NCBI RefSeq assembly: GCF_964237155.1
Contig: NZ_CAXSHH010000001.1
Coordinates: forward strand, 45,891-109,890
DNA length: 64,000 bases
Reading direction: 5' to 3'
Origin: an uncultured Sphingomonas sp.
GTDB lineage: Bacteria; Pseudomonadota; Alphaproteobacteria; Sphingomonadales; Sphingomonadaceae
Below, in pieces: positions 14,167 to 41,732 of this stretch. Positions within the stretch are counted from its first letter, which is position 1; the number at the start of each line of letters is the position of its first letter. Position numbers and translations under genes: made by a program. The notes under the pieces are model-generated. The model was not told the origin of the DNA and made no database searches. It saw nothing but the letters and a program-made list of their open reading frames with translations.

Positions 14167-15948
14167 ATGCACGCCTACCGCACCCACACTTGCGCCGCGC
14201 TCTCGACCAGCAACGTCAGCGAGACCGTTCGCCTGTCCGGGTGGGTCCACCGCAAGCGCGATCACGGCGGCGTGCTGTTCGTCGACCTGCGCGACCATTA
14301 CGGCATCACCCAGATCGTCGCCGACGGCGACTCCCCCGCGCTCGCCGCGCTCGAGCAGGTGCGCGTCGAGTCCGTCCTCACGATCGACGGCGTCGTGAAG
14401 AGCCGCTCGGAGGCGACGGTCAACACCGCGCTCGCGACCGGCGCGATCGAGGTGTTCGCGCAAGGGGCAACCGTCCAGTCCGCCGCGCAGGAGCTGCCCA
14501 TGCCCGTCGCGGGCGAGGCCGAATACCCCGAGGACATTCGCCTGCGCTATCGCTTCCTCGATCTCCGCCGCGAGCGCCTCCACGCCAACATCATGCTTCG
14601 CTCGCAGGTGATCGCCAGCATCCGCAACCGGATGATCGCCCAGGGTTTCACCGAGTTCCAGACGCCGATCCTGACCGCCTCCTCGCCGGAGGGCGCGCGC
14701 GATTATCTCGTCCCCAGCCGCGTCCATCCGGGCAAGTTCTATGCGCTCCCCCAGGCGCCACAGATGTTCAAGCAGTTGCTGATGGTGGCGGGTTTCGACC
14801 GGTACTTCCAGATCGCGCCGTGCTTCCGCGACGAGGACGCGCGGGCGGATCGATCGCCCGGCGAGTTCTACCAGCTCGATTTCGAAATGAGCTTTGTCAC
14901 GCAGGAGGACGTGTTCCAGGCGATCGAACCCGTGCTCCACGGCCTGTTCGCCGAGTTCGCCGACTGGCAGGGCAGGGGGCGGCAGGTATCCGCACTCCCG
15001 TTCCCGCGCATCCCGTACCGTGAGTCGATGCTGAAATATGGCAACGACAAGCCCGACCTGCGCAACCCGCTCGTCATCACCGACGTGTCCGACCATTTCC
15101 GCGGCTCCGGCTTCGGCCGGTTCGCGACGATCGTCGAGGGCGGCGACGTGGTCCGCGCCATCCCCGCGCCGAATACGGCCGACCGGAGCCGCAAGTTCTT
15201 CGACGACATGAACGGGTGGGCGCAAGCCGAGGGCTTTGCGGGCCTCGGCTACGCGACGCGCAAAGGCGGCGAGTGGGGCGGCCCGATCGCCAAGAACCAC
15301 GGCGAGGAGGGCATGGCCAGGATCGCCGAGGCGATCGGGCTCGGGCCCGACGATGGCGTGTTCTTCGCGGCGGGCAAGAAGGCGCATGCGGCCAAGCTCG
15401 CCGGTCTGGCGCGTACCCGGGTGGGCGAGCAGCTCAACCTGATCGACCCGAACCGCTTCGAGTTCTGCTGGATCGTCGACTTTCCGATGTTCGAATGGGA
15501 TGAGGATACCAAGAAGGTGGATTTTAGCCACAATCCCTTCTCGATGCCGCAGGGCGAGTTGGAGGCGCTTGAGACGAAGGACCCGCTCGACATCCTCGCT
15601 TACCAGTACGACATCGTCTGCAACGGCGTCGAGCTGTCGTCCGGCGCGATCCGGAACCACCGGCCCGAGATCATGTACAAGGCGTTCGAGATCGCGGGCT
15701 ACAGTCAGGCCGACGTCGACCGCGGTTTCGCGGGCATGATCAACGCGTTCAAGTTCGGCGCCCCCCCGCACGGCGGCTCCGCGCCCGGCATCGACCGGAT
15801 AGTGATGCTGCTGGCGGGCGAGCCCAACATCCGCGAGGTCGTGCTGTTTCCGATGAACCAGCGCGCCGAGGATCTGATGATGGGCGCGCCGGGGCCGGTC
15901 TCGGCGATGCAGCTGCGCGAACTGAACCTGCGGAGCACGGCGGAGTGA
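14167..15948 (+). CDS. aspS: Aspartate--tRNA ligase
   Basis: 593 aa. Class II motifs [24 protein letters not shown] and [14 protein letters not shown]. The presence of gatCAB in the window suggests a non-discriminating type (inference). Confidence 0.97.
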
Positions 15949-35697: not shown

Positions 35698-36809
35698 CGT
35701 CCTGAGAAAGTCGCGAGCCGCCGCGCGGCGTCGGCGCGGACGTCGGCCCAGAACAGGCTGTAGTCATAGACATGATAGTTGTTGCCCGGCAGCACGTACT
35801 TGGTGAGGTTGGGTGGCTCGCCGATCAGCAGGAAGCCGCGCCCTTGGTCGCAGCGCGCGGGGATCGCGGCGGCGGCGATCGTGGCGGTGGACAGGTCCTC
35901 CGACGGAACCAGCGCGCCGCGATTGGCCGTCGCCGGAGCCGCGCCGTCCGCCGTGCCGGTGATCGGGTTGGTGCACACCATCGGCGTGCCGCGCCGGGGG
36001 CGGCCGTCGAAGCCGGTGGTGGCGTCGTAGGTATCGACGACCAGCGACGGGTCGGCGGGCTCCGCGAAGCTCTGCCACGACAGCAGGCAGCCGCTATCGG
36101 CGGCGGCGCGGCATTCGGGCAAGCCGAGCGCGGCGAGGTCGGTCGCGCGCGAGACGGGCCAGCCGACGACGTAGGCGGCGACCACGCGGCGGCGGAGCGC
36201 GGGGTCGCGGGCGACCTTCTCGCGCAGGAGCGTCGTCAGGTGGAGCGCGCCCTGGCTATGACCGGCTAGGATAAGGGGGCGTGCGCGGTCGACCTGGGCG
36301 AGGAACGCGTCGAATGCGGCGGCGACGTCGCGGTAGGCGAGGGCCAGCGCCCTTTGCGCATCGGCCTCGCTCGTCAGGAACGCGCCGAAGGTCGCCTGTC
36401 GGTAGCGGGGCGCGTAGATGTCGGCGACCTCGTTGAACGTGCTCGCCTGGCCGCGCACGAAGACGTTCGTGCGAAAGTTCGTCTCGCCGTCGCCCGTGAT
36501 CGTGCCGTTCCACGCGTCGCGCGAGACGTAGGAGGTCGGGTGGATGAAGAACATCGCGGCGGGGCGGGTCGTGCCCGGCCGGTAGCCTTCGGGAGTCCAC
36601 AGGGCCGGGTTGTTCGGCAGATCGGGGCGGGCGACCCACATGCCCGGGTCGTCATAGGCGCGCGCGGCGACGCGCGGCTGAGCGCGGAACGGCTCAGAGG
36701 GGACGAGCGCGGCGCGGATGATGTCGTTGCCGTACAGGCGGTAGGCGAAGGCGCCGGCGATCGCGAGCGCGACGAGGAACGCCACGACGTACAGGAACTT
36801 GCGGACCAT
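35694..36809 (-). CDS. DUF3089-like alpha/beta-hydrolase family protein
   Basis: N-terminal TM/signal anchor [18 protein letters not shown] and nucleophile-elbow motif [12 protein letters not shown]. The family assignment is from memory of DUF3089 features. The ATG at 36809 lies inside track ORF 35694..36845. Confidence 0.62.
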
Positions 36810-36875
36810 GCCGGGGCCCGTGCCCGAACGGACACGCGCTTGCAACGCCGCGACCTGCGCGGTAGCCGCCCGGTC

Positions 36876-37163
36876 ATGTCAGTCGACGAAGCAACCGTGA
36901 AACGCATCGCGAAGCTCGCCCGCATCGCGATCACCGACGAGGACGCGGCCAAGCTCGCGCCCGAGCTGGGCAACATCCTGGGCTGGATCGAGCAGCTGGG
37001 AGAGGTCGATACGAGCGGCGTCGAGCCGATGACGGCGGTGATCCCGAACACGCTCCGGCTGCGGGACGACGTGGTCACCGACGGGGGCGTCCGCGATGCG
37101 GTGCTCGCCAACGCGCCTCAGGCCGAGCATGGCTTCTTCACGGTTCCCAAGGTGATCGAGTAG
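36876..37163 (+). CDS. gatC: Asp/Glu-tRNA amidotransferase subunit C
   Basis: 95 aa. [41 protein letters not shown] is a canonical GatC. Confidence 0.93.
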
Positions 37164-38647
37164 TGAGCGACATCACCGATCTTGGCGTCGCGGCTCTGCG
37201 CGACGGGATTCGCCTGGGCTGGTTCTCGGCGCGCGAAGTTGTGGACGCGTTCATCGTGAAGGTGAGCCGCGCCAGGACGCTCAACGCGTTCCTGGTCGAG
37301 ACGCCCGACCACGCGATCGCCGCCGCCAAGGCTGCCGACGCCGCGCGGGCTGCCGGAGAGGTGCTCGCGCCGCTCGCGGGGGTGCCGCTCGGGATCAAGG
37401 ATCTGTTCTGCACGAAGGGTGTCGCGACCACAGCCGGGAGCCTGATCCTGGAAGGCTTCACGCCGCCCTACGAGTCGACGGTCACGCGAAACCTTTGGGA
37501 CGCGGGCGCGGGAATGCTCGGCAAGCTCAACATGGACCAGTTCGCGATGGGGTCGTCGAACGAGACCTCCGCGTTCGGCAACGTGCTGTCGCCGTGGCGG
37601 CGGTCGGACGGCGGCAACGCGACGCTTGCGCCTGGCGGGTCGTCGGGCGGGTCGGCGACGGCGGTGTCCGCTCGGCTATGCCCGGGTGCGACGGGCACCG
37701 ATACGGGCGGCTCCATCCGGCAGCCCGCGGCGTTCACCGGCATCGCTGGGATCAAGCCCACCTATGGCCGCTGCTCGCGCTGGGGGACGATCGCGTTCGC
37801 GTCGTCGCTCGACCAGGCGGGGCCGATGGCGCGCGACGTGCGCGATTGCGCGATCCTGCTGGAGGCGATGAGCGGGTTCGATCCCAAGGACGCGACCTCG
37901 CTCCAGCTCGACGTTTCGCGCTGGGAGGACGGGCTGTCGGCGAGCATGCGCGGCAAGCGCGTCGGCATCCCCAGGGAATACCGCGTTGATGACATGCCCG
38001 AGGAGATCGATGCGCTGTGGCGGGCCGGGATCGACTGGCTGCGCGACGCGGGCGCGGAGATCGTCGAGGTGTCGCTCCCGCATACCAAGTACGCGCTACC
38101 CGCTTATTACATCATCGCGCCTGCCGAGGCGTCGTCCAACCTCGCCCGCTATGACGGCGTGCGATACGGCCTGCGCGACCTGCCCGAGGGGGCGGGGCTG
38201 CAGGACATGTACGCCGCGACGCGCGCCGACGGCTTCGGGGCGGAGGTCAAGCGCCGGATCATGATCGGCACCTATGTGCTCTCGGCGGGTTTTTACGATG
38301 CCTATTACACCCAGGCGCAGAAGGTCAGGGCGTTGATCGCGCGCGATTTCGAGCAGGCGTTCGAGCGGTGCGACGTGCTCCTCACCCCGACCGCGCCATC
38401 GGCGGCGTTCGCGCTGGGCGAGAAGTCGGCCGACCCGATCGCGATGTACCTGAACGACGTCTTCACGGTGCCGTCGTCGCTGGCGGGGCTACCCGCCATG
38501 TCGGTGCCCGGCGGTCTCGACAAGCAGGGCCTGCCGCTCGGCCTGCAGATCATCGGCCGCGCGCTCGACGAGCAGGGCGTGCTGAACGCCGGGCTGGCGT
38601 TGGAGGAGCGAGCGGGATTCACGGCACGGCCAGACGCTTGGTGGTGA
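37163..38647 (+). CDS. gatA: Asp/Glu-tRNA amidotransferase subunit A
   Basis: 494 aa. Amidase signature [11 protein letters not shown] and [13 protein letters not shown]. Confidence 0.96.
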
Positions 38648-38687
38648 GACCCCGGCGATTGCGATAGAGCGGACGCGGAGGCCACTC

Positions 38688-38993
38688 ATGAACGTCCATG
38701 CACCAGTCGCAAACTTCGAGGTCGAGATGTCGGCCGACGGCGAAGTGTTGGTTCCCGAGCCGGTCAGGAAGGCGGCGGGCCTGATCCCTGGCGCGCGCCT
38801 CGTGATCGGCATCAACGACGACGGAGAAGTCGTGTTGTTGACACGCATACAGGCGCGGCGGCGCGGCGAGACGCCTGACGCGCGCAGCGAGCGCATCGCA
38901 GCTGCGCTTAGGGAGATCGGGGACGGTCGCTACTCCACCGGGCAGTCCACCGCGGAGGTGATGGCCGAGCTGCGCGGCGGGCGGCAAGGATGA
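38688..38993 (+). CDS. vapB: AbrB/MazE/SpoVT-type antitoxin (VapB-like)
   Basis: 101 aa. Swapped-hairpin-type N-terminus EVEMSADGEVLVPEPVRKAAGLIPGARLVIGINDDGEVVL. The stop overlaps the PIN gene start (ATGA). Confidence 0.72.
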   Translation: MNVHAPVANFEVEMSADGEVLVPEPVRKAAGLIPGARLVIGINDDGEVVLLTRIQARRRGETPDARSERIAAALREIGDGRYSTGQSTAEVMAELRGGRQG

Positions 38994-39403
38994 TCTTCGC
39001 CGATTGCAACATCATTATCGACGTTATCAATGTCGATGACGCGTGGTCCGACTGGTCGCGCGAGAAGCTGCGAGCGCTGTCCGAAGCCGGCCGGGAGGTG
39101 ATCATCAACAATGTCGTAGTCGCGGAGATCGCGTCGAACTTCCCATCGCTTGATCGGCTGGTCGCGGCGATGGATCAACTGGACATCGAGATCATAGCTC
39201 TCGACGACGAGGCGGCGTTCGCCGCCGGGCAAGCCTTCCGCTCCTATCGTCGCCAGCACCGCGAGCGCGACGCGATCCTTGCGGATTTCCTGATCGGTGC
39301 GCACGCCGAGCAGCTAGGCGCGGTGCTGCTGACGCGAGATGCGTCGCTGTACGCTCGCTACTTTCCTAATCTCCCCCTCATCACTCTGGACACGCCTTCA
39401 TGA
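38990..39403 (+). CDS. vapC: PIN-domain ribonuclease toxin VapC
   Basis: 137 aa. Acidic PIN residues are in the expected places (D5 in MIFADCN, E in VVVAEIAS, D in [11 protein letters not shown] in LLTRDASL). It is visibly AT-richer than its neighbours. The stop overlaps the gatB ATG. Confidence 0.82.
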
Positions 39404-40872
39404 CGACGAGCGATTACCGCATCCAGGGCGACACCGGTGAGTGGGAGGTCGTGGTCGGCCTGGAGGTCCATGCGCAGGTGACCTCCAACGCCAAGCTGTT
39501 CTCCGGCGCGGCGACGGCTTTCGGTGCGGAGCCGAACACGCAGGTGTCGCTGGTCGACGCGGCGATGCCGGGGATGTTGCCGGTGCCGAACCGCGAGTGC
39601 ATCCGCCAGGCGGTGCGGACCGGCATGGCGCTGGACGCCAAGATCAACCGATGGTCGCGGTTCGATCGGAAGAACTATTTCTACGCCGACCTGCCGCAGG
39701 GATATCAGATCAGCCAGCTCTACCATCCGCTCGTCGGCGAGGGCGCGGTCGAGATCGCGCTGGACGAGAAGGACCCGGACGGGGCGACCAAGACGATCGG
39801 CGTGGAACGCATCCATGTCGAGCAGGATGCGGGCAAGCTGATGCACGACCAGCATCCGACACGGTCGTACGTCGACCTGAACCGGTCGGGCGTGGCGTTG
39901 ATGGAGATCGTGTCGCGGCCCGACCTCGCGTCGCCGGCGGAGGCCGGAGCTTATCTGCGCAAGCTGCGGTCGGTGCTGCGCTATGTCGGGTCGTGCGACG
40001 GGAACATGGAGGAGGGGTCGATGCGCGCCGACGTCAACGTCAGCGTGCGCAGGACGGGCGAGCCGTTGGGGACGCGGACGGAGACCAAGAACGTCAACTC
40101 GGTCCGGTTCGTGATGGCGACGGTCGAGTTCGAGGCACGGCGGCAGGTCGAACTGCTGGAGGAGGGCGGCCAGGTCGTCCAGGAGACGCGGCTGTTCGAT
40201 CCCGATCGCGGCGCGACCCGGTCGATGCGGTCCAAGGAGGACGCGCACGATTACCGCTACTTCCCGGATCCCGACCTGTTGCCGCTCGAGCTGGACGACG
40301 CGTTCCTCGACGAGTGCCGCGCGTCGTTGCCCGAGCTGCCGGACACCAAGCGGCGGCGGTACGAGGCGGCGGGCGTCACGCCCTACAACGCCAACGTCTT
40401 GACCGCCGAGGTCGAGACGGCGCGCTGGTTCGACGCGCTGCTGGAGGCGGGCGCGGAGCCTCGGGCGGCGGCGAATTGGGTCGGGAGCGAGCTGTTCGGC
40501 GCGCTAGGCCGGCTGGGGCTGGGGATGGAGGCGAGCCCGGTGTCGCCGCGCCAGGCCGCGGAACTGCTCGGGCTGGTCGCGGACGGCACCCTGTCGGGCA
40601 GCCTGGCCAAACAGGTGTTCGAGGTGATGCTGGAAACGCGCCAGGACGCGGGCGCGGTGGTCGAGGAGCGCGGGCTGAGGCAGGTGACCGACACCGGCGC
40701 GATCGAGGCGGCCATCGCCGGGATCATGGCGACGAACGCTGAAAAGGTCGCGGATTACCGCGGCGGCAAGGACAAACTGTTCGGCTTCTTCGTCGGTCAG
40801 ACGATGAAGGCGATGGGCGGCAAGGCGAACCCGGGCGTGGTGAACGAGCTGCTGAAGAGGGCGCTGAGCTGA
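39400..40872 (+). CDS. gatB: Asp/Glu-tRNA amidotransferase subunit B
   Basis: 490 aa. [14 protein letters not shown]-terminus, [17 protein letters not shown], and a C-terminal YqeY-like tail. Confidence 0.96.
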
Positions 40873-40970
40873 GCGCGCCGAGACTGGCTTGCACCGCAGA
40901 ACTGATTTGTTAACCTACCGTTGGTTAGATGATTCGACCGGGGGGTCGGATCAGAGCCGGGGGGAAAGAC

Positions 40971-41732
40971 ATGAAGCGCGTGTTCGGTTGGTCGGTGGCT
41001 GTCGCCATGGTCATGGCGCCGACGGCGGCGATCGCCGGTCCGAAGCAGCTGACCGCGTCGGGTTACCAGTTGCCGTCCGACAAGCCCGTCTCGATCGTGC
41101 TGATGCGGCCCGACGTGCAGGTCGGCCAGCTGCAAGCGGGCGGCGCGATCGAGCCGAATGCCAACTGGACCAAGGCCGCGCGCGACAATCTGCTCGTCGC
41201 GATGGACGCGCACAGCAAGGCGCGCGGGCTGGGGATGACGGTGATGCCGGAACCGGAGGGCGAGGCGGGCAAGTTGGTCACCGACTATGAGGCGCTTCAC
41301 CGCGCCGTCGCGACGGCGATCCTGACGCACAAATATCAGGGCGCGAAGCTGCCGACCAAGAAGGATCGGTTCGACTGGATGCTCGGGCCGGGCGCGGGAG
41401 CGCTGGGCCAAGCGACGGGGGCCAATTACGCGTTGTTCTTCGTCGGGCGCGATAATTTCGCGACCGCCGGGCGCAAGGCGGCGCAGGTCGCGGGCATGTT
41501 GGGGTGCTTGGTCGGTTTTTGCGTGATCACGAAGGGCGGGCAGCACATCTATTACGCCTCGCTGGTCGAGCTTTCGACGGGCAATGTCGTCTGGTTCGAC
41601 CTGCTGCGCGGGTCGGAGGGCGATGTCCGCACGCCCGAGGGCGCGAAGGCGATGGTCGATGTCGTGATGGCGTCGCTGCCGACCAAGCCGGGGCAGGGTC
41701 CCGTCCAGACCGCCGCCGTCGCCGCGCGCTGA
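40971..41732 (+). CDS. Hypothetical secreted protein (253 aa)
   Basis: Signal peptide MKRVFGWSVAVAMVMAPTAAIAGP. GC3-rich frame. The M48 peptidase gene follows 8 nt downstream. I recognise no motif. Confidence 0.6.
   Translation: MKRVFGWSVAVAMVMAPTAAIAGPKQLTASGYQLPSDKPVSIVLMRPDVQVGQLQAGGAIEPNANWTKAARDNLLVAMDAHSKARGLGMTVMPEPEGEAGKLVTDYEALHRAVATAILTHKYQGAKLPTKKDRFDWMLGPGAGALGQATGANYALFFVGRDNFATAGRKAAQVAGMLGCLVGFCVITKGGQHIYYASLVELSTGNVVWFDLLRGSEGDVRTPEGAKAMVDVVMASLPTKPGQGPVQTAAVAAR

Follow-up and report, generated by a model that had tools for sequence, protein, structure and literature searches.

How did a toxin-antitoxin (TA) pair come to lie inside the gatCAB operon of a Sphingomonas, does it still work, and has gatB come to depend on it? 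Chromosomal TA pairs are usually viewed as free-standing and mobile, and their use is debated. We examined these questions for an uncultured Sphingomonas sp. in which a vapBC pair separates gatA from gatB, using a 64,000-nucleotide stretch of DNA (contig NZ_CAXSHH010000001.1, positions 45,891–109,890), here called the window. Positions are those of the window unless stated otherwise.

Gene layout of the gatC-gatA-vapB-vapC-gatB locus

All five genes are read from the forward strand. The products of gatC (36876–37163, 95 aa), gatA (37163–38647, 494 aa) and gatB (39400–40872, 490 aa) each exceed the cut-off of an NCBIfam equivalog model (TIGR00135, 97.4 bits versus 47.1; TIGR00132, 545.8 versus 481.1; NF004015, 796 versus 628), which identifies the operon as gatCAB. 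Base 37163 is common to the gatC TAG (37161–37163) and the GTG start assigned to gatA; homologues of GatA from relatives align from residue 1–2. A 40-nt spacer (38648–38687) follows, with a GGAGG (38677–38681) 6 nt upstream of the vapB ATG that serves vapB. The spacer has neither the palindrome nor the promoter-like hexamers found in relatives. The antitoxin gene vapB (38688–38993, 101 aa) and the toxin gene vapC (38990–39403, 137 aa) are joined by an ATGA (38990–38993), and a second ATGA (39400–39403) holds both the TGA of vapC and the ATG of gatB, so that the toxin gene overlaps its neighbors at both ends. An earlier interpretation made from the letters of this DNA and their open reading frames (the sequence-only reading) had described the shared base, the 40-nt gap, the joined antitoxin and PIN toxin genes, and the vapC stop lying over the gatB start. 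Inspection of the sequence agrees on each point, and the last extends well beyond the window: vapC overlaps the gatB start in all 27 carriers from the genus and in 19 of the 20 gat-linked carriers from elsewhere in the family.

VapC and its predicted complex with VapB

VapC matches the PIN-domain family PF01850 over profile positions 1–116 of 120 (38 bits versus a cut-off of 23.6). It scores 22.9 bits against the NCBIfam VapC equivalog NF047959, for which the cut-off is 80, and is thus a member of the superfamily outside that equivalog. When the VapC profile was compared with solved structures, 3zvk was the best match (E = 1.3e-6), with 6nkl, 7by2, 3tnd, 4chg, 6a7v and 6sd6 reaching E values up to 4.4e-4. 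Residues D5, D11, E46, D99, T115, R116 and D117 are invariant across 27 homologues. Four of these (D5, E46, D99 and D117), which we take to be the catalytic set of acidic residues, align with the solved VapC structures. In all 27 loci a cognate antitoxin gene lies directly upstream of vapC and overlaps it, the arrangement by which we recognize a VapC toxin; the overlap between vapB and vapC is 4 nt in every case. Neither protein matched a PADLOC defense-system model.

Eight close pairs of loci, drawn from lineages other than that of the window, gave dN/dS ratios of 0.05–0.30 for VapC and 0.02–0.24 for VapB. By this measure both genes are under purifying selection, and the module looks functional.

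A model of the complex between the VapB and VapC of the window scored 0.74, versus 0.00 for the best of three controls. Of 157 solved complexes 116 attain that mark, as do 2 of 215 mismatched pairs, although VapBC is a textbook pair and the pass may come from likeness to complexes already solved. Between runs at least 83% of contacts are shared, with a partner pLDDT of 79 or more. The C-terminal half of VapB is placed over VapC, with residues 95–97 touching VapC residues 46, 98–99 and 117. In the window genome (G000), 14 matches to the PIN domain pass the Pfam cut-off. At E ≤ 0.001 the gat-embedded PIN protein is the only one in that genome matched by the window VapC; no close, potentially cross-neutralizing paralogue was therefore found with this query.

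The gatA-gatB junction in Sphingomonas

A search with VapC found matches in 9 of 36 genomes of the same genus, all of them between gatA and gatB; 24 genomes belonging to other families in the order gave none. We then located gatA and gatB in 150 further Sphingomonas genomes. The two genes share a contig in 139, and 137 junctions were fetched (L019–L155, one genome being left out), which with the window makes a set of 138. Comparison of this junction in related genomes had been proposed by the sequence-only reading: vapBC is present in 27 of the 138, window included, and absent from 111. Elsewhere the two gat genes abut (23 junctions, as TAAnATG or GTGA) or are separated by gaps of 1–205 nt (47) or 270–616 nt (21), and 20 junctions hold other inserts of up to ~5 kb. 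In the 27 carriers the vapC stop overlaps the gatB ATG by 4 nt (ATGA, nine loci including the window) or by 8 nt (ATGnnTGA, 18 loci).

A Pfam scan of open reading frames in junctions occupied by something other than vapBC identified UPF0114 proteins (three loci), a hexapeptide transferase, FkbM and class I/SAM methyltransferases, glycosyltransferases of several families (GT1, GT2 and GT61) and Wzx-type flippases. With contents ranging from nothing to ~5 kb, the gatA-gatB junction is a hypervariable hotspot for accessory DNA in this genus. Several of these inserts are encoded on the other strand from gatA and gatB, so in those congeners gatB can be expressed without read-through from gatCA.

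Shorter spacers have features of their own. Spacers of 70–110 nt in several genomes (L125–L134) are filled by long REP-like repeats of two kinds that form hairpins, for example ...CCGTTCGCCCTGAGCTTGTCGAAGGGC... and ...CGTCATCCC.GCGAAAGC.GGGATCTCGGG.... Many of the 120–190 nt spacers in L135–L152 resemble small open reading frames of ~45–60 codons that begin at or in the gatA stop and would encode a hydrophobic N terminus and a Lys/Arg-rich C terminus. One similar stretch lies upstream of vapBC in L066.

A search of the other junctions for relics of vapBC returned one clear case, L037 (genome G027), and one weak match (E = 0.004). L037 has an intact vapB and a vapC that is missing its first ~53 codons, and is apparently a remnant with an inactivated toxin.

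Distribution in the Sphingomonadaceae

Scanned with the VapC alignment, named genomes yielded at least 587 relatives, spread over many phyla. Among the best 80 of these loci, 10 have gat flanks, and all 10 belong to Sphingomonadaceae, including Sphingomonas, Novosphingobium, Sphingobium and Stakelama (the Sphingomonas folli genome is the one that contributed L053). Stop and start overlap by 4 or 8 nt in seven of them and by 1 nt in another; the remaining two are a locus with a 1-nt gap and a frameshifted metagenome-assembled genome. In a sample of 250 other genomes from the family, the VapC subfamily (E ≤ 1e-15) was present in 21, representing 15 further genera. Counting Sphingomonas, this amounts to 16 of the 112 genera sampled. 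Each of these genomes has a single subfamily match. In 20 of the 21 the gene is preceded by gatA, and in 19 it overlaps the start of gatB. In L257 (G336), vapC is followed by a 236-aa methyltransferase-like open reading frame and then by the end of the contig, with no gatB in view. L261 (G293) has a free-standing member of the subfamily, with no gat genes within 1.5 kb.

In a VapC tree built by a quick search from 106 sequences and 136 columns, a single branch (SH-aLRT 79) separates the 37 gat-embedded proteins from 69 free-standing relatives of other phyla. One ancient insertion is the simplest reading of this branch, and the presence of vapBC between gatA and gatB most likely goes back to one old event in an ancestor of the Sphingomonadaceae.

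Within the genus, presence of the pair is patchy when mapped on a tree of the flanking DNA, requiring 19 changes of state, at least eight of which are forced by well-supported branches; this tree is based on 600 nt, 56 of its 135 inner branches lack resolution, and the row for L072 (branch length 5.5), a faulty extraction, was disregarded. Identity between VapC proteins is uncorrelated with identity between flanks (Spearman 0.10; medians 0.44 versus 0.89), so repeated recombination across the conserved flanks is no less possible than vertical inheritance followed by losses. We stress that the carrier genomes are related rather than independent, that counts of carriers overstate the support they give, and that each sample was taken from a bigger group.

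An operator-like palindrome upstream of vapB

A palindrome of the form GT[AG]TTAC-N(0-14)-GTAA[CT]AC lies 24–31 nt upstream of vapB in most carriers. It is exact in 20 of the 27 carriers and in none of the 111 non-carriers; in five loci it is degenerate or has swapped arms. The same pattern is present in 14 of 20 loci from the wider family. Its two types go with different forms of the VapB loop: GTATTAC..GTAATAC is paired with TVKGQVTIPK and GTGTTAC..GTAACAC with TSKGQVLIPK. In five loci (L051, L052, L057, L061 and L063) a longer vapB frame begins upstream. Alignment was used to settle on the downstream start; the longer frame would place the palindrome inside coding sequence.

The palindrome is accompanied by a promoter-like site. 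The -35 hexamer is usually TAGAC[AG], made of the TAG stop of gatA and the three bases that follow, and is 17–18 nt from a weak -10 within the palindrome. Consistent with this arrangement, gatA ends in TAG in 18 of the 27 carriers versus 12 of the 111 other junctions. A promoter-like score of 8 or more out of 12 was reached in 11 of the 27 carriers, compared with 0.9% of junctions lacking vapBC and 5.5% of shuffled sequences. This signal is suggestive only, since the genomes are related and the -10 hexamers match at only three or four of six positions; a consensus scanner would not accept them. Taken together, the palindrome looks like a VapB operator in the relatives, overlapping a weak promoter. 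As the -35 element there is made from the gatA stop, vapBC-gatB could be an autoregulated unit in those genomes.

The window does not share this arrangement. No exact palindrome is present anywhere in the 64 kb. In the spacer (38648–38687) no inverted repeat scores above 4, a noise-level value, and no promoter-like match exceeds 6 of 12. Repeats within 38500–39500 are limited to weak pairs at chance level, with no operator among them, and a consensus scan of 36300–41300 detected no sigma-70-like promoter and no terminator. The locus with the closest VapB, L062, has both the palindrome and the promoter-like site, so the loss appears to be specific to the lineage of the window. The sequence-only reading had raised a regulatory link in which VapB autoregulation feeds into gatB dosage. 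That idea is plausible for the relatives, given their operator-like palindrome, and finds no support in the window, which lacks the palindrome and has also lost the corresponding Lys, Gln and Lys of the VapB loop.

A broader version of this idea is that the pair has been domesticated as a regulator, with occupancy of the palindrome and coupling of vapC to gatB setting GatB dosage, and thus GatCAB activity, under stress. Several features are in keeping with it. In most carriers the palindrome and promoter-like site are directly upstream of vapB with the -35 on the gatA stop, the vapC-gatB coupling is kept throughout the family, both genes show purifying selection, and the VapC subfamily is essentially confined to the gat locus (one match per genome, 20 of 21 behind gatA). 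The pair is nevertheless missing from 111 of 138 Sphingomonas junctions, which means that there is no general need for it; the window has no operator; and nothing ties the target of VapC to tRNAAsn or tRNAGln. We regard domestication as unlikely, if not to be dismissed.

VapB of the window is divergent

The assignment of VapB as an AbrB/SpoVT/MazE-type antitoxin comes from homology to the VapB of L062, from alignment and from its predicted binding to VapC. The protein itself matched no Pfam family, PF04014 included, and its matches to AbrB-type NCBIfam models are weak, none reaching the cut-off (PrlF, E = 0.006; HgcC, E = 0.0005). Its counterpart in L062 is 50% identical (E = 4e-31) and passes PF04014 (29.4 bits versus 24.7), as do 23 of the 24 VapB proteins of relatives that were scanned (26 exist), the exception being L040. 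Compared with solved structures, the VapB family profile matches, through the N-terminal domain, 2glw (E = 2.9e-8) and SpoVT (E = 1.2e-3 and 4.4e-3). The 27 top-scoring structures in that comparison were TAL-effector repeats; these were rejected as an artifact in which numerous sub-threshold matches to one short motif, GL.P..V, are added together. With PF01850 matched by VapC and PF04014 by the homologues of VapB, the view that the two genes are a real pair of AbrB-type antitoxin and PIN toxin is upheld.

The loop expected to bind DNA is divergent. The family sequence TSKGQVLIPK is replaced in the window by SADGEVLVPE, which differs from the consensus by K17D, Q19E and K24E. The net charge of the N-terminal domain (-4) is the lowest of the 27. 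From what is known of the AbrB-type fold family, the Lys, Gln and Lys residues presumably contact DNA. They are missing in exactly two VapB proteins, those of the window and of L040 (G004), and these are the two loci without any palindrome. The combination of conserved loop and operator is therefore absent from the window. L040 has the non-consensus loop NLNGHVAIPD, yet its promoter-like match, TGGACG-17-TAAAAT (9 of 12), is the best of all. At the other end of the protein, the window VapB keeps M92 and R96.

Since it lacks a Pfam match, VapB might be decaying, and the whole module could be a remnant in this lineage, with VapC weak or inactive and the pair kept because gatB needs an upstream frame. 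This lineage has lost the operator-like palindrome, the promoter-like hexamers and the conserved residues of the VapB loop. VapC has a C terminus (TLDTPS) that departs from the near-invariant TPETDHG-type tail and a long end branch (0.46) in the VapC tree, and the congener L037 demonstrates a vapC truncated at its 5′ end. Against this, both frames are intact and both overlaps preserved, every invariant residue of VapC is kept (D5, E46, D99 and D117 among them), VapB retains M92 and R96, and the predicted complex scores far above its controls (0.74 versus 0.00). On balance decay is a decidedly unlikely account of the module.

Base composition and the age of the insertion

The sequence-only reading had described both inserted genes as visibly richer in AT than their neighbors and had taken this as a sign of horizontal acquisition. 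The first statement is correct for vapC, with a GC content of 0.606 (0.6th percentile among window tiles of equal size; window mean 0.683), but not for vapB, at an ordinary 0.676 (42nd percentile). GC at third codon positions is lower in both genes (0.76–0.81 versus 0.89–0.92 in the gat genes). The second statement, in the form of a recent acquisition, found no support. In all 27 carriers vapC is richer in AT than its flanks, so low GC is a property of the module and carries no date.

A recent arrival would mean that the gatA-gatB junction of this genome received a mobile vapBC cassette, with low GC marking it as foreign. Besides composition (0.606 versus 0.683 overall, and the difference at third positions), the divergence of the proteins could be read in this way: identity to other carriers is 36–49% for VapC of the window and 19–49% for its VapB, versus 77–93% for the flanks. 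Metagenome contigs also contained no close relative of the window VapC (0 of 452 pattern matches were confirmed). Yet 26 other Sphingomonas genomes and 15 other genera have the pair at the same site, in the same order and with the same overlaps, the gat-embedded VapC proteins form one clade, the compositional bias is common to 27 of 27 carriers, and no transposase, integrase or flanking repeat was found beside vapBC in the window. We consider a recent acquisition very improbable. A swap of one vapBC allele for another by recombination in gatA and gatB is possible.

Proposed dependence of gatB on the module

The genome has a single match for gatB. Although the assembly is 99.99% complete, it gave no match above cut-off for GlnRS (glnS, TIGR00440) or AsnRS (asnS, TIGR00457). 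GatCAB is thus probably the sole route to Gln-tRNAGln and Asn-tRNAAsn, and we infer that it is essential here. A frame of 599 codons at ~14206–15858 (G000:C1:60096–61748), ~22 kb upstream of the gat operon, gives sub-threshold matches to the AsnRS model. It most likely encodes the AspRS that feeds GatCAB.

With neither promoter nor terminator detected from gatC to gatB in the window, the proposal of the sequence-only reading that gatB depends on transcription and translation passing through vapBC fits the sequence. In a search of sequencing runs for this DNA, the one DNA run that matched (share 0.84) was a lichen metagenome and may be its source; for RNA runs the share of sequence words was just 0.05. 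It is quite probable, in our judgment, that the locus holds a genuine VapBC module derived from one old insertion between gatA and gatB, carried in a gatCA-vapBC-gatB polycistron and translationally coupled to gatB, which in the window has lost autoregulation. The module would be of type II, with an AbrB/SpoVT-fold antitoxin and a PIN-domain RNase as toxin. In the window genome a single polycistron would run from gatC through gatA, vapB and vapC to gatB. Translation of vapB would hand over to vapC at the first ATGA, and ribosomes terminating at vapC would re-initiate at gatB through the second, gatB having no strong Shine-Dalgarno sequence here. Such a handover would tie GatB synthesis to ribosomes that finish vapC. 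VapB is predicted to neutralize VapC by wrapping the C-terminal half of the antitoxin over the PIN active site. In most carriers VapB would also repress through the palindrome; in the window it would not, and read-through from the gatC promoter would be the sole source of expression for the module and gatB. Thus vapBC and gatB of the window probably depend on gatC read-through with no TA autoregulation.

The sequence-only reading had also suggested an addiction-type stabilization of gatB. We reject TA addiction of the gat operon as the main reading: presence is patchy (19 changes, at least eight forced), congeners carry opposite-strand inserts at the same place, and an essential chromosomal operon needs no stabilizer. 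Protection in the other direction is more likely. Imprecise loss of vapC would harm initiation at gatB, so the essential gene would shelter the TA pair from imprecise deletion, more than the reverse.

The most far-reaching reading of the locus is that VapBC serves as promoter, operator and translational gate of gatB in the Sphingomonadaceae. Turnover of VapB under stress would then tune GatCAB and with it Asn/Gln mistranslation, the toxin may strike the tRNAs that GatCAB serves, and the window lineage would have dropped the transcriptional half of the device. We offer this as a speculation with a small chance of being right.

Relation to known systems and significance

The closest solved relative, by the VapC profile, is VapBC2 of Rickettsia felis (3zvk), which also combines an AbrB-type VapB with a PIN VapC in an antitoxin-first bicistron. 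We take that structure to include operator DNA. VapBC2 is free-standing, whereas the pair in the window lies within gatCAB, has its stop over the gatB start, and lacks both the operator and the basic residues of the loop. VapC/MvpT of Shigella and Salmonella (3tnd and 6sd6), a tRNA(fMet)-specific endonuclease, belongs to the same PIN superfamily and has the same acidic residues (E = 1.9e-4 and 4.4e-4). The relation is distant, and the Shigella module is plasmid-borne, unlike the chromosomal, operon-embedded module described here. The VapB family profile matches the swapped-hairpin DNA-binding domain of SpoVT/AbrB (2ro5, 2w1t and 2glw), but VapB of the window reaches no Pfam model on its own and has Asp, Glu and Glu in place of the Lys, Gln and Lys of the family.

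The sharing of a transcription unit between a TA pair and a housekeeping gene has a precedent in E. coli, where mazEF lies downstream of relA at the end of the unit. In the window the toxin gene is followed, and overlapped, by an essential gene. A full-text literature search, seen as listings and the openings of abstracts, returned no description of a TA pair inside gatCAB. The parts of the system are ordinary. What is new is the conserved embedding, the probable coupling of an essential gene to a toxin, and the fusion of an operator-like site to the stop of the gene upstream.

Our analysis identifies the gatA-gatB junction of Sphingomonas as a hotspot for accessory DNA, and at this site one VapBC lineage keeps its place in an essential translation-fidelity operon across at least 16 of the genera sampled. 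The essential gene starts within the stop codon of the toxin gene, and in most carriers an operator-like site is joined to the end of the preceding gene. The locus offers a natural test system, and its cultured carriers include Sphingomonas folli, S. populi and Sphingobium sp. AP50. It opens the questions of whether a TA pair may control a housekeeping gene, whether embedding in an essential operon would act as a shield against deletion, and what the loss of autoregulation would mean for a lineage such as that of the window.
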